Source: Minisyncoccota bacterium (lineage in GTDB: Bacteria; Patescibacteriota; Minisyncoccia; Phycocordibacterales; JBAYGS01). From it: a DNA stretch of 64,000 bases. The translations under genes and the position numbers were made by a program. The DNA is taken from the NCBI GenBank assembly GCA_041666545.1, contig JBAYGS010000002.1:106395-170394 (forward strand), written 5' to 3'. Positions 33,801 to 44,872 of the stretch are shown piece after piece. Within the stretch, counting starts at the first letter, position 1. Each line of letters opens with the position of its first letter. The notes under the pieces were generated by a model. That model did no database searches. It saw nothing but the letters and a program-made list of their open reading frames with translations, and had not been told where the DNA came from.

Positions 33801-33834
33801 TCTATTCTAGCTTTTTGCAAAAAGCTAGAATAGA
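33801..33834. repeat. 34-bp palindrome TCTATTCTAGCTTTTTGCAAAAAGCTAGAATAGA (copy 1 of 3), candidate operator
   Basis: Near-perfect inverted repeat overlapping the arsR-like start. Related copies at 34110-34140 and 44835-44872. Confidence 0.55.
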
Positions 33835-34138
33835 GAAATGGGAGGTTGTGGTGTATAATTTTTGGATGGCGATTAATTATCGAATAGTCGAAAGAATTGT
33901 GAAAGGTTTTGCCAATCACAATCGTCTCAAGATTCTTGAGTTGCTCCAAGCAGAGCCAGAATTATCGGTTATTGATGTGGCGGATAAGTTGGGAATCGGG
34001 TATATGAACGTTTCGGACCACATCCGTAAAATGAGTATTGCCGGTTTGTTGATGAAGCGTAGCAACGGACCGTTTGTACTTCACAAATTAACACCTCGAG
34101 CTGAGGGCATTCTAGCATTTTGCAAAAAGCTAAAATAG
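33815..34138 (+). CDS. ArsR/SmtB-family HTH transcriptional regulator
   Basis: HNRLKILELLQAEPELSVIDVADKLGIGYMNVSDHIRKMSIAGLL is a winged-HTH of the ArsR family. Start probably at the internal MAINYR. Confidence 0.6.
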   Translation: MQKARIEKWEVVVYNFWMAINYRIVERIVKGFANHNRLKILELLQAEPELSVIDVADKLGIGYMNVSDHIRKMSIAGLLMKRSNGPFVLHKLTPRAEGILAFCKKLK

Positions 34139-34139
34139 A

Positions 34140-34265
34140 GAAAGGGGAGTGGAGAAGTAGGAGAGAGAGTGGGGAAGGAAAGAAGAGAAGAAAAGAAAAA
34201 GAAGAGAGAAAGGGGAGGGAAAGGGGTGATGGTGGCGGGGTGGAGGTGGGGGTTTGGGTGATTGT
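34140..34265 (+). repeat. polypurine (GA-rich) low-complexity tract (~120 bp)
   Basis: AGAAAGGGGAGTGGAGAAGTAGGAGAGAGAGTGGGGAAGGAAAGAAGAGAAG... is almost pure R on the + strand. Confidence 0.7.
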
Positions 34266-34424
34266 AAAGCGGGGGTTTTGGGCGTATATTTGGTGGGTAG
34301 ATCTGGGGTCTGTGATTCAAGACCTACCTACCGGCAGGCAGGTTCAAGATTCAGGATTTAAGATATAGGTATGGAGATTGAAAAAGAAATTTTGGAAATT
34401 AGGGATAGCACGTTCGCGCTGCTG

Positions 34425-34463
34425 CGCTCAGTATTCCCTCGCTCGACGCTCGGTCAGAAGTTA
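34425..34463 (+). repeat. ~38-bp direct repeat copy A (GCTCAGTATTCCCTCGCTCGACGCTCGGTCAG)
   Basis: A second copy at 34753-34793 (CCTCAGTATTTCCTCACTCGACGTTCGGTCAC) flanks the 65-aa ORF at 34480-34677. Confidence 0.45.
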
Positions 34464-34479
34464 GTGGCTAAAATATTAT

Positions 34480-34677
34480 ATGGATATTGGAAAGGAAATT
34501 GAGGATATCAAAATCAGAAACCAAAGGGTGGAGATGGATAAGGCGTGGGAGGTGAGTTGGACTCGCCGGCTTTTTATAGCCGGCTCGACTTATGTAATCG
34601 CCGGGATTTGGCTCTTGATGATTGAGGATTCTTTGCCGTGGCTTAAGGCTTTGGTTCCGGCGGGTGGGAGGAAGTAA
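34480..34677 (+). CDS. small hypothetical membrane protein (65 aa)
   Basis: ORF with one TM helix. Flanked by the ~38-bp direct repeats. Weak support. Confidence 0.2.
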   Translation: MDIGKEIEDIKIRNQRVEMDKAWEVSWTRRLFIAGSTYVIAGIWLLMIEDSLPWLKALVPAGGRK

Positions 34678-34853
34678 GTGAAAAGTTGAAAGTGTAAAGT
34701 AAAAAGTGCGGAAAGACGCTTTCGTTGCCGTTTGTCACATTCGGTCTACTGACCTCAGTATTTCCTCACTCGACGTTCGGTCACCGAAAAATGTGGGGCT
34801 AGAATAGGTTATAGCCACTAGCCAATAGCCAATAGGTTTGGGAAAAGAAATTT

Positions 34854-35507
34854 ATGACCAAGATCAAGGATCTTCAAAAAATTGATAGGCCAAGAGAAAA
34901 GCTGCAAAAGTATGGCGCAGGTAAATTATCCGACGCTGAACTTTTGGCAATTCTACTTCGAACAGGTACAAAAGATTTAAATGTTTTAAAATTAGCGCAA
35001 AAGATTTTACAAAAATTCGAAAATGAAAAATTTATTAATATCACAATTGACGAATTAAAGACAATCCACGGGTTGGGGCCAGTAAAGGCTTGTGAGATTA
35101 TTGCTTGTTTTGAGCTTGGAAGACGAATGTTGAAAGGTAAAAAATCATCAATTCTACTTTCTTCTAAAGATGTTTGGGAACGAATGGAAGATATTAGGGG
35201 AAGCAAAAAAGAGCATTTTGTAGTTTTTTATCTAGATAGTAGAAATCAAGAGATAAAAAAAGAAATTATTTCAGTTGGAACTTTAAATGAAAGCCTTGTT
35301 CACCCTAGAGAAGTATTTGAGGGTGCAATAAAAAATAATGCTTCTTCAGTTATTATTGCTCACAATCATCCCTCTGGAGATTTGGAACCCTCGCAAGCCG
35401 ATATTGAGATAACAAAAAAATTAATTCATGCTGGGAAAATTCTAGATATTAAAATAATTGATCATATTATTGTAGTAAATGATTCGTGGTCAAAGATTGA
35501 AGTGTAA
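34854..35507 (+). CDS. radC: RadC-like JAB-domain protein (UPF0758)
   Basis: Helix-hairpin-helix N-terminal region and JAMM motif HNHPSG...D (IIAHNHPSGDLEPSQAD). Confidence 0.85.
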   Translation: MTKIKDLQKIDRPREKLQKYGAGKLSDAELLAILLRTGTKDLNVLKLAQKILQKFENEKFINITIDELKTIHGLGPVKACEIIACFELGRRMLKGKKSSILLSSKDVWERMEDIRGSKKEHFVVFYLDSRNQEIKKEIISVGTLNESLVHPREVFEGAIKNNASSVIIAHNHPSGDLEPSQADIEITKKLIHAGKILDIKIIDHIIVVNDSWSKIEV

Positions 35508-35519
35508 GAAAGTAATTGT

Positions 35520-42908: not shown

Positions 42909-43268
42909 ATGAAAATAAAAGGAACTGATTTTGTTTTATACAATGTGACTGATTATGAGCGAGCGGTTAAGTTTTACCGTGATGTGTTGGGACTCAAATT
43001 TGTCAGCGAATATGGTGGATACTGGGGAGAGTTTGATGCCGGAAATGTTGTTCTGGCAATCCACGCAAACAAGCAACCAATCAAAGGCGGCTCAGCGGTA
43101 GCTTTGGCCGTTGATGATGTTGATAAATTTGTCAAAACCCTGAAGGATAAAGGAGTAAAAATCAGCGAGGAGCCGAGCGAGACTGAAGTGTGTTTTATAG
43201 CTACGATTTGCGACCCGGACAATAATGAGATTATTCTCCATCAGAGAAAAGATGGAACTGTAGGCTGA
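42909..43268 (+). CDS. VOC/glyoxalase-bleomycin-resistance family protein
   Basis: 119 aa with paired beta-alpha-beta-beta-beta modules (VLGLKF...AIHANK...). Confidence 0.7.
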   Translation: MKIKGTDFVLYNVTDYERAVKFYRDVLGLKFVSEYGGYWGEFDAGNVVLAIHANKQPIKGGSAVALAVDDVDKFVKTLKDKGVKISEEPSETEVCFIATICDPDNNEIILHQRKDGTVG

Positions 43269-43299
43269 AGTTGTTGGAAAAAATTTAAGGAATAAACAA

Positions 43300-43845
43300 A
43301 TGGAAATTAAATTAGGCACACTAAGTTTTCTTTCAGCTGCCACACACAAGGATTTACTAGCCAATTCTACCGCTCAAACGCTGTTAGCTTTGCCGCAACA
43401 GGGGGCGGTGGGTGTGGTAGAGATTGACCCGTCATTTTCTGATACAGCTCAATTCTGTCAAAAATATAAAAATGAAGCCGGAATAGTAGCTAATTGTGTG
43501 ATTCTAGAGGCGAAACGAGCCGAAAAAGTTTGGTACGCAGCTTGTGTGATTTTAAGTAATACTCGAGCGGATGTGAATGGCTTGGCTAGACGGACTTTGG
43601 ATGCCCGCAAGGTTTCCTTTGCCCCAATGGAACTTGCGGTAGAAAAAACTCGCATGGAGTATGGTGGAATTTGTCCAATTGGGTTGCCGAATGACTGGCC
43701 GATTTTGATTGATAAAGCTGTGGCAGATTTAGACTACGTAATTATCGGGAGCGGGATTAGAAAATCGAAAATTGCAGTTCCGGGGGAAATTCTTGCTTCC
43801 TTACCTAATGCTCAAATTCTGGTCGGCCTCGGGCAATCAAAGTAG
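43300..43845 (+). CDS. YbaK/ProX-family aminoacyl-tRNA deacylase domain protein
   Basis: C-terminal MEYGGICPIGLPNDWPILIDKAV matches the YbaK GGxSPxG...P...D motif. Confidence 0.55.
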   Translation: MEIKLGTLSFLSAATHKDLLANSTAQTLLALPQQGAVGVVEIDPSFSDTAQFCQKYKNEAGIVANCVILEAKRAEKVWYAACVILSNTRADVNGLARRTLDARKVSFAPMELAVEKTRMEYGGICPIGLPNDWPILIDKAVADLDYVIIGSGIRKSKIAVPGEILASLPNAQILVGLGQSK

Positions 43846-43851
43846 TTTCAA

Positions 43852-43925
43852 ACGGCTCACTTCTAAAGCCGAACGGCTCATTTAACGGTTAAATGAGCCG
43901 TTCGGGTATTTGGGTGAGCCGTTGG
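43852..43925 (+). repeat. ~60-bp repeat with a perfect internal palindrome (CGAACGGCTCATTTAACGGTTAAATGAGCCGTTCG), copy 1
   Basis: Second copy at 45083-45140. Each is followed by a GC-rich hairpin (CCCCGCCACAC...GTGTGGCGGGG, and GGCCCCGCCGACGGGGACGGCGGGGC). Confidence 0.6.
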
Positions 43926-44011
43926 TTTCTGGAGAGACCCCGCCACACTCTTTGGCCCCGTGTGGCGGGGTCGGGTGTGAATGGTGGCGCCCTATGATAT
44001 TCTTTGTGAAT

Positions 44012-44572
44012 ATGAAATACATATTTATCACCGGCACTCCAAATTCAGGAAAAAGTACGTTGGCCAAGAAAACTGCGGAGTTGATTGGAGGAATACATGT
44101 TGATATTGATAGTTGGCGAGAGGAGTTATGGCAAAATAAGGAGACCCGACCTTGGGTTGATTTCTTTTCTAATCAAGATGAAAAAGAATATTGGAATACA
44201 ACAGCGCCCGAACAAGATTGGCAGAATCTCGTGAATCAGTCAGAAGCATTTTGGCCGGTCATCTTGGAAAAAATTAAAAAAATAATAGCGACAGGCCGTC
44301 CAGCCGCATTTGAAGCTGTGAATATTCTGCCACATCTGGCCAAGCGAGATTTGCCTTTTGACGGAATTGTTTTGCTAAACACTTCCTCTGATGAACTCCT
44401 GGAAAGGCTTAGGGCCAGGCCTCGCTGGGGCGCGACTGAAGAATTGCAGAAAATTGAGGCTCTTCGGTTCGTCGAGCAGGCAGAATTTTATAAAAGGGAA
44501 GCCGAGAAGTACGAATATAAATTTTTTAACAACAGCCGAGAGGCCGAGGAATACCTGTCGCGCTTAAAATAA
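44012..44572 (+). CDS. P-loop NTPase / nucleoside(tide) kinase-like protein (AAA_33-like)
   Basis: MKYIFITGTPNSGKSTLAKK Walker A at the N-terminus. Upstream ORF codons overlap the GC hairpin and are excluded. Confidence 0.45.
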   Translation: MKYIFITGTPNSGKSTLAKKTAELIGGIHVDIDSWREELWQNKETRPWVDFFSNQDEKEYWNTTAPEQDWQNLVNQSEAFWPVILEKIKKIIATGRPAAFEAVNILPHLAKRDLPFDGIVLLNTSSDELLERLRARPRWGATEELQKIEALRFVEQAEFYKREAEKYEYKFFNNSREAEEYLSRLK

Positions 44573-44696
44573 AGTTTGGCCTCGTCCTATTCCCACAGCA
44601 TAGCTGTTCCCCCGCGGACCAGGGCGGGGTATTAGGCGAGGCAACCGGGCAAACTTTGTTGTAGTAGTGTCGGCTCCGCCAACACACGATTCTCAC

Positions 44697-44745
44697 TGCG
44701 GATTCATCCCCGCCTCAAAGCGGGCGGGGATGAATCCGCAGTCAC
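44697..44745. repeat. perfect 20-bp-stem hairpin (ACTGCGGATTCATCCCCGCC-TCAAAGC-GGGCGGGGATGAATCCGCAGT)
   Basis: Read directly from the sequence. Intergenic. Confidence 0.7.
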
Positions 44746-44834
44746 AATAAAAATTTAAATCCTGCGCTGTCTGGCCTTGTGAAATATATCGTAAAATTGA
44801 CTGATGAAATTTCGCCTTGAATAATATCCTTCTT

Positions 44835-44872
44835 TCTCTATTTTAGCTTTTTGCAAAAAGCTAAAATAGAGA
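44835..44872. repeat. palindrome TCTCTATTTTAGCTTTTTGCAAAAAGCTAAAATAGAGA (copy 3 of the arsR-associated palindrome family)
   Basis: Near-perfect 38-bp inverted repeat, related to 33801-33834 and 34110-34140. Confidence 0.55.

Follow-up and report, generated by a model that had tools for sequence, protein, structure and literature searches.

Between two copies of a long palindrome, the stretch of DNA analysed here (64,000 nucleotides, referred to as the window) encodes a small winged-helix protein. This raises the question of whether the palindrome is the site to which the protein binds or an element of another kind, such as a self-spreading repeat, an RNA hairpin or a recombination site. Based on comparative evidence, we consider it rather probable that the 90-aa ArsR/SmtB-type protein whose gene lies between copies 1 and 2 recognizes the palindrome as its cognate DNA site. 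The protein would bind as a dimer, possibly with two dimers on the 34 bp. The features concerned are as follows:

33801..33834, no strand: copy 1, the upstream palindrome, a perfect 34-bp dyad spanning -65 to -32 from ATG 33866; proposed autoregulatory operator
33831..33859, plus strand: promoter-like site, TAGAGA-17-TATAAT, with 10/12 matches in the promoter scan
33866..34138, plus strand: gene for the 90-aa ArsR/SmtB-type winged-helix protein, assigned by profile, PDB and structure matches
34106..34139, no strand: copy 2, the 3' palindrome, spanning the C-terminal codons and the stop; proposed second operator
44834..44873, no strand: copy 3, a solo palindrome, a perfect 40-nt dyad in non-coding DNA
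20848..20881, no strand: copy 4, in frame inside tsaD (19899-21197, minus strand)

Copies of the palindrome in the window

A first-pass annotation of this DNA had reported a repeated palindrome, two copies of which bracket an arsR-like gene. This observation is upheld by an exact match to the 34-mer at copy 1, a match with two mismatches at 44837-44870 within copy 3, and the failure of dinucleotide shuffles to yield any match (chance expectation, 0). A motif scan located four copies in all, including the previously missed copy 4, and shifted copy 2, formerly placed at 34110-34140, to 34106-34139. While the best site in 50 shuffled windows reached at most 22/32 positions of the radiation-wide consensus, copy 4 scores 30/32 and copy 2 scores 26/32, with the right arm and the core kept and a degenerate left end (GGC for TCT). 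Copies 1, 2 and 3 have a genome-specific GC variant, AGCTTTTTGCAAAAAGCT, and the flank AATAGAGAA in common.

Start codon and promoter of the ArsR-like gene

The gene starts at ATG 33866, as indicated by its homologues and by the deposited 90-aa protein P0001 (100% identity, full length); an ORF beginning at TTG 33815 is a spurious N-terminal extension. Copy 1 had been thought to overlap the start of arsR, and the true ATG moves it upstream of the gene. The -10 box (33854-33859), preceded by TG, ends 6 nt ahead of the ATG, so that the mRNA is probably leaderless, and the -35 position of this promoter overlaps the right end of copy 1. The same layout (palindrome, ~12-20 nt, TGTATAAT or TGTATACT, 6-9 nt, ATG) occurs at loci L101, L120, L112, L036 and L118, and L077 and L095 have the same -10 box followed by a longer leader. 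The window belongs to the promoter class with TGTATAAT ~12-20 nt beyond the palindrome; in many lineages the -10 box starts at +2 after the palindrome and is followed by 6-7 nt and the ATG, and there the equivalent upstream site would cover the -35 region and the spacer. With copy 1 directly at the promoter of the gene's probably leaderless mRNA, binding at this site would control transcription of the gene, most likely by repression.

Copy 2 ends 1 nt beyond the stop codon TAG (34136-34138), and GILAFCKKLK together with this stop can be read from it, in agreement with the earlier view that it encodes the ArsR C-terminus. It may represent a second operator that shares its sequence with the stop and with the codons for the C-terminal dimerisation helix, and it may act cooperatively with copy 1, ~300 bp apart, and/or on the downstream DNA.

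An ArsR/SmtB-type protein without the metal-binding residues of the family

The protein matches the Pfam families HTH_5 (24.8 bits, cutoff 22) and HTH_24, while NCBIfam HTH_metalloreg is hit below its cutoff (50.3 versus 55 bits). The best PDB match in phmmer is CadC (E 2.3e-7). The AlphaFold model (pLDDT 86.7) has the layout α1-α2-α3-α4-β1-β2-α5, with helices at residues 5-15, 18-29, 35-42, 46-58 and 77-89 and strands at 62-67 and 70-75. The helix formed by residues 46-58 is the predicted recognition helix, and the C-terminal helix (residues 77-89) is encoded in part by copy 2. Foldseek retrieved CadC (TM 0.86), YgaV, HlyU, SqrR, PagR, SmtB and CzrA as top matches (TM ~0.7-0.86), and NolR is also among the matches. 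There are at least 519 homologues, nearly all of 90 aa, and no other domain, including HUH/Y1 transposase or catalytic domains, was found in the bracketed protein.

CadC ELCVCD in helix α3 aligns to ELSVID in our protein, and no cysteine occurs in α3 across 40 homologues; in the same set, helix α5 reads RAESILVFCKxLE and lacks histidine. The sole conserved cysteine is that of the FCK motif in α5, and even this one is absent from a paralogue type characterized by NFKT. The protein, which lacks the metal-binding residues of the family, is most likely of the ArsR/SmtB type and non-metal-sensing.

The fold, the best sequence and structure matches, and a dyad-symmetric site overlapping or abutting the own promoter are features shared with the ArsR/SmtB autorepressors SmtB, CzrA, CadC and ArsR, which bind imperfect 12-2-12 operators. 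Unlike in these, neither an α3 Cys-x-Cys nor an α5 His/Asp/Glu metal site is present, the putative operator comprises 34 instead of ~26 bp, the second one sits over the stop codon of the protein's own gene, the same site sequence is maintained throughout a superphylum, and tens of further sites exist, some of them intragenic, without adjacent resistance genes. A second group, HlyU, PagR, NolR, SdpR and SqrR/BigR, is similar in size (~90-100 aa), in lacking classical metal sites and in that its members can act globally; they are structural neighbours (TM 0.74-0.83) and give weak NCBIfam matches. The scores, however, are far under the cutoff of each family, orthology is not indicated, and our protein has one conserved cysteine or, in the NFKT paralogue, none. 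To our knowledge, an architecture with flanking sites has not been described for any of these regulators.

Conservation of the motif and of the palindrome-gene-palindrome arrangement

The motif TCTATTCTAGTnTTTTGCAAAAnACTAGAATAGA has matches at more than 120 genome loci, ~104 of them from Patescibacteria. Among the matches listed it is almost confined to Patescibacteria (CPR), where the same consensus recurs in many candidate phyla, and one match falls in viral contigs. Judged by these matches, the 34-bp motif is conserved across the whole Patescibacteria (CPR) radiation. A literature search retrieved no description of it. The central 10 nt are invariant. On sites anchored solely on this invariant core, the arms co-vary, with 56 double-sided changes versus 21.8 ± 3.6 in shuffles (0/500 as high), 87% of cells paired and double changes in 10/16 pairs.

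The first-pass annotation had proposed looking for the palindrome beside arsR homologues in relatives, and it is indeed a regular companion. Among 49 homologues from many Patescibacteria lineages (55-72% identity; gene calls at related loci are crude, consisting of longest ORFs only), a palindrome lies upstream within ~100 nt in 43, and 47 have a 3' palindrome whose last base is exactly 1 nt beyond the stop codon. Since the whole family keeps this overlap with the stop in one fixed register, a recent seeding of the coding end by mini-repeats, the alternative reading, is not supported. The upstream and 3' sites of one gene share idiosyncratic variants (28.6/34 positions identical within a gene versus 26.0 between genes). 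The two flanking sites are spaced 286-336 bp apart without helical phasing. Auxiliary operators within coding DNA are familiar from lac O2 in lacZ and gal OI in galE, which likewise lie a few hundred bp away from the respective promoter operator. Here, in contrast, the putative second operator resides in the regulator's own gene, over its stop codon, where it constrains the C-terminal helix, and the spacing shows no helical phasing.

Further evidence comes from paralogues. Proteins of the GY(E/M/Q)N type pair with the TTTTGCAAAA core, and those of the N(F/I/L)KT type with TTCTTGAGAA or TTCTCAAGAA at both ends; among 79 genes, not a single mixed case was encountered. The changed residues (NFKT for GYxN) reside at the N-terminus of predicted helix α4, i.e., the recognition helix. 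Shared descent could account for part of this association, given the physical linkage of the gene with its two flanking sites. MAG DATDST01, the one such case, contains both paralogues together with a variant-type solo site that is not linked to them. Taken with the recurrent arrangement and the leaderless promoter, the change of the core along with the recognition helix agrees with the original suggestion that the palindromes are good operator candidates.

Solo copies in intergenic DNA

About half of the sites are solo copies away from ArsR genes. Such widespread occurrence had been held in advance to speak against the operator idea; target sites are, however, expected away from a regulator's own gene, and binding is not refuted thereby. 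Four sites in the 64-kb window and ~1 per 45 kb in the DNA flanking other sites would correspond to tens of sites per genome at a density of ~1 per 16-45 kb, and copies 3 and 4 would belong to this intergenic and coding set. Copy 3 is situated inside a 1.1-kb non-coding stretch between the end of a kinase gene (44572) and the start of an MFS transporter gene (45715), 265 nt beyond the kinase stop codon and ~430 nt ahead of an unsupported Zn-ribbon ORF; no ArsR homologue is found near it. The proposal that it marks a second target locus, the kinase and Zn-ribbon genes, was not borne out by the behaviour of solo sites in general. They track intergenic DNA (convergent 16, divergent 15 and tandem 37 spacers, against 11.6, 15 and 41 expected from intergenic length) without preferring divergent, promoter-containing spacers, a positional -10 signal does not emerge across all solo-site flanks, the spacing to a -10 box is not fixed, and the neighbouring genes have no function in common (204 proteins in 177 clusters, among them families as different as PPDK, SHMT, MscL and topoisomerase I). 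The solo sites thus do not establish a classical regulon.

Copies inside coding genes and the possibility of a dispersed repeat

Intragenic copies always occupy the sole stop-free frame, encoding (F/I)YSS(V/I)LQ(K/N)T(A/R)I. They were found in frame in TsaD (two positions), an HhH-GPD glycosylase, TatD, MiaA, Peptidase_S11 and a formyltransferase. Copy 4 encodes LYSSVLQKTAI within a lineage-specific TsaD insertion. The two TsaD relatives closest to ours (77% and 70% identity) retain the site, and in P0123 the peptide at the tsaD site has changed and the DNA is a perfect 30-nt palindrome. Where tsaD codons specify the same amino acid, third positions are identical in 14/17 cases within the motif versus 535/934 in the rest of the gene. 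In six HhH-GPD glycosylase orthologues from Saccharibacteria, Parcubacteria and Kaiserbacteria, most codons of the motif have a third-position identity of 1.00 and two of 0.67, and the values for flanking codons are mostly 0.2-0.67. By this measure, at least some solo sites are held constant at the DNA level.

This constancy bears on the notion that we are dealing with a dispersed, self-spreading palindromic repeat akin to REP, MITE or Rickettsia palindromic elements, with the ArsR-like gene as a passenger or former master copy that has no regulatory role. The distribution of solos, roughly proportional to intergenic space in every orientation class, would fit such an element, as would the stop-free frame of the intragenic copies and their location in different TsaD loops in different lineages, copy-specific flank extensions in some genomes (L076, L077, and the flank shared in the window), the presence of several ArsR cassettes within one MAG (L041, L057, L059), and the many other repeat families in the window, some of which are likewise in frame in tsaD. 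REP/RAYT systems also feature a gene bracketed by dispersed palindrome copies, and Rickettsia palindromic elements sit in frame inside conserved proteins at positions that differ by lineage. REP and MITE sequences, however, are species-specific, whereas the palindrome is conserved across whole classes of the radiation and phylum-level lineages; tens of copies per genome are present instead of hundreds, the product of the bracketed gene is a 90-aa DNA-binding protein and not an HUH/Y1 transposase, no transposase is linked, and viral contigs contribute the one match only. Rickettsia palindromic elements measure 100-150 bp, against 34 bp here, and differ in depth of conservation. Six distant genomes retain the sites at orthologous codons, with third positions that scarcely vary, and the tsaD site persists at 70-77% identity; both also argue against a mere repeat, an explanation that we regard as unlikely. 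It would be compatible with the palindrome being a binding site if sites that had spread were later retained for binding.

RNA structure and recombination

Copies 1 and 3 can fold into hairpins of 16-18 bp (-19.4 kcal/mol, z-score -5.5, and -21.5 kcal/mol, z-score -6.7, respectively), many solo sites are located at 0-50 nt from a stop codon or in the spacer of a convergent gene pair, and the changes in the arms are compensatory, all of which would suit a bidirectional terminator, an mRNA-stabilising 3' structure or a processing site rather than protein-binding DNA. Copies 2 and 4, however, are conserved yet do not fold (z-scores +0.9 and -0.35), and the property common to all four copies is therefore sequence, not fold; with its invariant centre, the sequence itself is conserved beyond pairing. 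In the leaderless layout the upstream copy precedes the transcription start. Unlike in intrinsic (Rho-independent) terminators, the stem is AU-rich and a T-run is not a consistent feature of the flanks, the palindromes were not called by the terminator scan, and Rfam 15 gave no match over any copy (gathering threshold for the whole window; E<=1 for 33300-45800). A role as an RNA element appears very improbable.

Hardly credible at all is a recombinase core site of the loxP/FRT or pdif kind with the ArsR gene as a mobile cassette and the solos as empty sites. The 34 bp can be read as 13-8-13, the two sites flanking a gene have asymmetric variants in common in direct orientation (18 pairs match better directly than inverted, and nine match worse), and the genomic context of the cassette differs between genomes. 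The main-type spacer TTTGCAAA, however, is palindromic instead of asymmetric as in loxP/FRT/dif and thus confers no directionality, no recombinase is among the families listed next to the sites, every cassette carries this one gene, its 3' site is translated into an essential helix, and sites in orthologous genes have persisted over long times.

A global or architectural DNA-binding protein?

If the palindrome is indeed the binding site of the ArsR-like protein, the tens of further sites, some constant at the DNA level, suggest that this protein is closer in behaviour to a global or architectural DNA-binding protein than to a dedicated repressor of metal resistance. Deep conservation of an inverted repeat at the nucleotide level together with a winged-helix protein is reminiscent of HrcA and CIRCE, a long inverted repeat conserved across very distant lineages along with its repressor. 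CIRCE precedes a small, coherent chaperone regulon, whereas our gene set is incoherent and sites also occur inside coding regions. Conserved chromosomal sites in coding as well as intergenic DNA are known from ParB-parS and MatP-matS, and AspA, the ArsR-like centromere-binding protein of plasmid pNOB8, is a small winged-helix protein that binds a palindrome next to its own gene; it appears among our Foldseek matches at ranks 31, 34 and 46. In contrast to these systems, partition genes are not linked, and the window contains no GC-skew switch.

As to the surroundings of copy 3, the adjoining 20-bp-stem hairpin noted earlier is real (44695-44742, 21-bp stem, -43.8 kcal/mol) and constitutes a separate element ~95 nt upstream. 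Ordinary GC-rich terminators with a T-run also occur in the window.

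Copies of the palindrome in the window

Every position of the window was scored against a consensus derived from other genomes, and a score of at least 22 of 32 was reached at exactly four positions. None of 50 shuffles of the window contained a score above 22/32, and the exact 34-mer TCTATTCTAGCTTTTTGCAAAAAGCTAGAATAGA found no match in shuffled sequence, so that the palindrome, to which the first-pass annotation had drawn attention, is not a chance occurrence.

Palindrome copies and the ArsR-type gene in the window
33801-33834, copy 1: exact 34-mer TCTATTCTAGCTTTTTGCAAAAAGCTAGAATAGA; consensus score 30/32
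33866-34138, plus strand, arsR: gene for a 90-aa ArsR/SmtB-type protein
34106-34139, copy 2: 3' end of arsR, found via a 24-nt half-site and repeat search; 26/32
44837-44870, copy 3: two mismatches to TCTATTCTAGCTTTTTGCAAAAAGCTAGAATAGA; 28/32
20848-20881, copy 4: in tsaD, found via a 24-nt half-site and repeat search (there at about 20848-20883); 30/32

The perfect dyad of copy 3 extends over 40 nt in all (44834-44873), and the hairpin with a 21-bp stem near it (44695-44742) is a separate element. A 59-nt self-complementary repeat, present in two copies of 93% identity (43855-43913 and 45090-45148), brackets the P-loop kinase gene together with copy 3. Directly 3' of the arsR stop codon there is a strongly purine-rich tract (GAGAAAGGGGAGTGGAGAAG…GAAAGGGG, 34140-34260); G/A-rich or C/T-rich tracts also lie beside palindromes in several other genomes (loci L070, L057, L074, L086, L031, and L081). 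A replication origin or terminus of the RTP/Ter type at the arsR locus was rejected, as GC skew stays positive from one end of the window to the other, with no switch at 33.8 kb.

The ArsR-type protein and its link with the palindrome

The ORF list contained a TTG-initiated ORF of 107 aa starting at 33815. Homologues and a deposited protein of 90 aa and 100% identity from a Candidatus Paceibacterota MAG (P0001) place the true start at the ATG at 33866 (MAINYR). The protein matches the Pfam families HTH_24, HTH_20, and HTH_5, stays slightly below the cutoff of the NCBIfam ArsR/SmtB model HTH_metalloreg (50.3 bits, cutoff 55) and has its best PDB sequence matches in CadC, ArsR, SmtB, and CzrA. 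The AlphaFold model (pLDDT 86.7) has ArsR/SmtB topology, with residues 46-58 forming the recognition helix and residues 77-89 the C-terminal helix, and Foldseek retrieved CadC (TM 0.86), YgaV, HlyU, SqrR, PagR, SmtB, CzrA, and NolR as well as the centromere-binding protein AspA. The metal-site motifs of the ArsR/SmtB family are missing: ELSVID stands in place of ELCVCD, and α5 lacks His. Existing annotation describes the family only as "winged helix-turn-helix domain-containing protein", "ArsR family transcriptional regulator" or "hypothetical", and a search of full-text literature, which included the motif strings and covered part of the literature, yielded no account of the motif or the arrangement.

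A motif scan of one-genome-per-species contigs with the query TTTTGCAAAANNCTARAATAGA returned at least 120 loci. Among the matches listed, about 104 were assigned to Patescibacteria because of their record title or because the second arm is present, and the lineages represented include Saccharibacteria, Kaiser-, Moran-, Taylor-, Adler-, and Nomurabacteria and Paceibacterota. The arm that was left unconstrained by the query is also conserved (consensus TCTATTCTAGTnTTTTGCAAAAnACTAGAATAGA). A phage origin was dismissed on the basis of a single match in 2.9 million viral contigs. One full site was found on an Omnitrophica MAG contig (L078), and a 5-kb Methanobrevibacter MAG contig carries two tandem right-arm half-sites, TTTTGCAAAACAATAGAATAGAGAAA followed by TTTTGCAAAACACTAGAATAGAGAA (L024:1830-1885); both contigs may be mis-binned Patescibacteria.

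Among the loci listed, tblastn identified 49 arsR homologues with 55-72% identity. In 43 of them the palindrome lies within about 100 nt upstream, and those without it are partial or cut off by contig ends. At the other end of the gene, the palindrome ends exactly 1 nt past the stop codon in 47 of the 49 homologues, which means that it is always the palindrome that supplies the codons of the C-terminus …ESILVFCKxLE and the stop codon. Idiosyncratic variants are common to the upstream and the 3' site of one and the same gene (28.6 of 34 positions identical within genes versus 26.0 between genes), as exemplified by CTAAC…GTTAG in L020 and L034 and by TTTTGGAA in L089.

Recognition helix and palindrome core vary together

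One MAG encodes a second paralogue (L030), in which the recognition helix begins with NFKT and not with GY(E/M/Q)N. The palindromes on both its flanks have the core TTCTTGAGAA (L030:6113-6446), and its C-terminus is altered accordingly, to VLKFLRILE followed by the stop codon. A metagenome scan for this variant core gave at least 120 loci (L122-L241), and the NFKT family associated with it proved abundant in groundwater and sediment metagenomes. Across 79 ArsR-like genes, all those for GYxN-type proteins are flanked by TTTTGCAAAA, all those for N(F/I/L)KT-type proteins with a recognisable palindrome are flanked by TTCTTGAGAA or TTCTCAAGAA, and mixed cases do not occur. Because the sites adjoin the gene, inheritance, and not function, may account for part of this correlation. 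An unlinked solo site of the variant type (L023:5675-5708) is present in the MAG with the variant paralogue. A third core, TTCTGCAGAA, was encountered a single time (L045:6951).

Sites away from arsR

About half of the sites in Patescibacteria loci are located away from an ArsR gene, 60 of them intergenic and 20 in coding sequence. The intergenic ones occupy convergent, divergent, and tandem spacers in numbers (16/15/37) close to those predicted from intergenic length (11.6/15/41), and solo sites of the variant type are, if anything, depleted in divergent spacers. The genes next to solo sites are heterogeneous, with 204 proteins falling into 177 clusters and families as different as PPDK, SHMT, DHFR, Ham1, MscL, YchF, topoisomerase I, PdxT, ComM, Cupin_2, and thioredoxin-reductase-like proteins. 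Such spread and such neighbours argue against a conventional, functionally coherent regulon, be it for metals, DNA repair or redox. Recurrences among neighbours and host genes are weak and unconvincing: HhH-GPD six times, TsaD three times, TatD and thioredoxin-reductase-like proteins twice each, and Pyr_excise or RadC downstream of arsR. The same is true for Cupin_2, which is found beside a site or regulator gene in at least four distinct genomes (L067, L080, L083, and the group L245-L247, whose members have one identical regulator protein in common). This neighbour of about 131 aa adjoins the regulator gene or lies directly downstream of a solo palindrome, and it is the only recurrent one that hints at a functional partner.

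The proposal that copy 3 marks a second target locus and regulates the nearby kinase or Zn-ribbon genes is not borne out. Neighbours of solo sites are heterogeneous, spacer types follow intergenic length, copy 3 lies 265 nt past the stop codon of the kinase gene, and the sole promoter-like match nearby (44797-44825) occurs at chance frequency. An arsR remnant upstream of copy 3 was rejected, because tblastn found only one ArsR gene in the window.

Site density is about one per 16 kb in the window and about one per 45 kb in the DNA flanking other sites, and thus tens of sites per genome are to be expected. It is plausible that solo sites originated as dispersed repeats, an origin that is compatible with later retention for binding.

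Sites within genes

Inside genes, the motif is always read in its only stop-free frame, as (F/I)YSS(V/I)LQ(K/N)T(A/R)I. Host genes encode HhH-GPD glycosylase, TsaD, TatD, MiaA, D-Ala-D-Ala carboxypeptidase, and formyltransferase; the site occupies the same codons of the glycosylase gene in six genomes and two different loops in TsaD. When the six distant glycosylase genes are compared, third-position identity is 1.00 in most motif codons and 0.67 in two, versus mostly 0.2-0.67 in flanking codons, even those for an invariant amino acid. The tsaD site of the window is kept in relatives at 77% and 70% identity, and third positions of tsaD are identical in 14 of 17 cases in the motif versus 535 of 934 elsewhere. 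In one tsaD relative the peptide is altered (EHSSILQNARMD) and the DNA is still a perfect 30-nt palindrome. Constant third positions, together with an altered peptide on intact DNA, indicate that the DNA sequence of these sites is being preserved and that they are more than passive debris.

The tsaD gene (19899-21197, minus strand) has further in-frame insertions derived from otherwise intergenic repeats (20310-20346, 20554-20576, and about 20577-20615). Tracts of the heptamer (A/G)GTAGTG encode LLPTHYSLQTP and PTTHYPLPT, a GGAATTTGGAAATTGG-like tract encodes ISNNQFPNSKSE, and low-complexity peptides of a related kind occupy these places in tsaD relatives.

Promoter context, symmetry and folding

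Many lineages have a -10 hexamer (TATAAT, TAGAAT or TAAAAT) that starts at +2 after the palindrome, with 6-7 nt between it and the ATG. With this layout, the mRNAs should be leaderless, and the palindrome should span -46 to -13. In the class to which the window belongs, the palindrome is followed by about 12-20 nt, TGTATAAT or TGTATACT, usually 6-9 nt and the ATG, with a longer leader after the box in L077 and L095. The promoter scan of the window gave TAGAGA-17-TATAAT (33831-33859), and 6 nt separate the end of the -10 box from the ATG at 33866. The palindrome therefore overlaps or abuts the core promoter, where an autoregulatory operator is classically found. In some lineages its central TTGCAA can act as the -35 box of the arsR promoter. 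That the palindrome is itself a sigma-70 promoter was rejected as a general explanation, because TTGCAA and TAGAAT are only 5 nt apart, and no general -10 peak at fixed offsets from sites emerged over all flanks.

Symmetry was examined in 40 upstream sites anchored on the invariant core only. The arms are paired in 87% of cells, and double-sided changes occur in 10 of 16 pairs. The number of double-sided cells (56) was not reached in any of 500 shuffles (21.8 ± 3.6), and shifted registers gave at most 23. Copies 1 and 3 fold into hairpins (-19.4 and -21.5 kcal/mol), as a function of the palindrome as an RNA hairpin would have it. This reading is weaker: copies 2 and 4 do not form a hairpin (z-scores +0.9 and -0.35), so the property common to all four is the half-site sequence, which is the expectation for a dimeric DNA-binding protein. 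The palindrome matched no known RNA family. A role as a recombination site is also a weaker reading.

A predicted binding site and its possible role

The simplest account is that the palindrome is the predicted binding site of the ArsR-type protein. It draws on the link with arsR homologues, the promoter context, the symmetry, the match between helix and core and the conservation within genes, and the operator proposed in the first-pass annotation thus gains comparative support. The protein would autoregulate at copy 1; copy 2 would be a second operator embedded in the α5/stop region and might serve cooperative repression, control of downstream DNA or a transcription block; copies 3 and 4 would be further sites of the same protein.

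In its predicted mode of action the pair resembles an ArsR/SmtB autorepressor and its operator. Unlike that family, the protein lacks the hallmarks of metal sensing, and it is also unusual that the nucleotides of the palindrome are conserved across a whole superphylum, that the putative operator encodes the C-terminus and stop codon of its own regulator and that selected sites lie within housekeeping genes.

A bolder and, in our estimation, rather unlikely possibility is that the 90-aa protein and the 34-bp palindrome constitute a Patescibacteria-wide, genome-scale DNA-marking system and not a gene-specific switch. By analogy with AspA, ParB-parS, MatP-matS or mTERF, the protein might then have an architectural, roadblock or boundary function. 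Tens of high-information sites would be under DNA-level selection even in essential genes, two sites would permanently flank arsR, with one serving at the same time as codons of the dimerisation helix, and paralogues with altered helix and core would give rise to orthogonal sets of sites within one cell.

A large share of bacterial diversity belongs to Patescibacteria, which, to our knowledge, possess very few transcription factors and in which almost no regulation has been characterised by experiment. If the binding-site assignment is correct, protein and palindrome would form a pair of a rare kind, a CPR-wide DNA-binding protein whose cognate site can be predicted, and with 34 bp and an invariant 10-bp core this site is precise enough to be tested directly. 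Genetic tools for these organisms would gain an operator-repressor module ready for use and, with it, a natural orthogonal variant. The arrangement would also be an unusually clear case of dual coding, in which the final ten codons of a regulator gene and its stop codon are fixed by the operator of that regulator, and predicted binding sites are constant at synonymous positions inside housekeeping genes.

Other features of the window

A low-GC island (0.33-0.39; 35520-39982) downstream of arsR and radC encodes an OLD-family AAA/TOPRIM nuclease, a MutH/Sau3AI-like endonuclease, and a C-5 cytosine methyltransferase and is probably a defence or restriction-modification cassette. Upstream of arsR, an intact tRNA-Glu(UUC) (33538-33610) is preceded, 189 nt upstream, by a degenerate second tRNA-Glu-like sequence (33349-33418; Rfam 25.9 bits, below the cutoff of 29; 5' half 94% identical). 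The 3' end of a 402-aa LAGLIDADG-type ORF (32096-33304, minus strand) overlaps tRNA-Ser(CGA) (32117-32207), likewise on the minus strand; probably the ORF was called too long at its 3' end, otherwise the arrangement would be unusual. Further repeats comprise a tandem array with a 14-nt period (TATCTACTTACTAC, about 9-12 units, 51556-51723), GTAGTGA/GTAGTGG heptamer tracts dispersed over both strands and mostly intergenic (13792, 15537, 17632, 52885, 58330, and 62695), and the six-copy family TATTCGTGTGCCCTATTCGTAAGGGTTCTTAAC, found at 6351-6431, 25415-25446, 45625-45657, and 63169-63248, whose copy at 45625 lies just past a GC-rich terminator-like hairpin (45593-45620).
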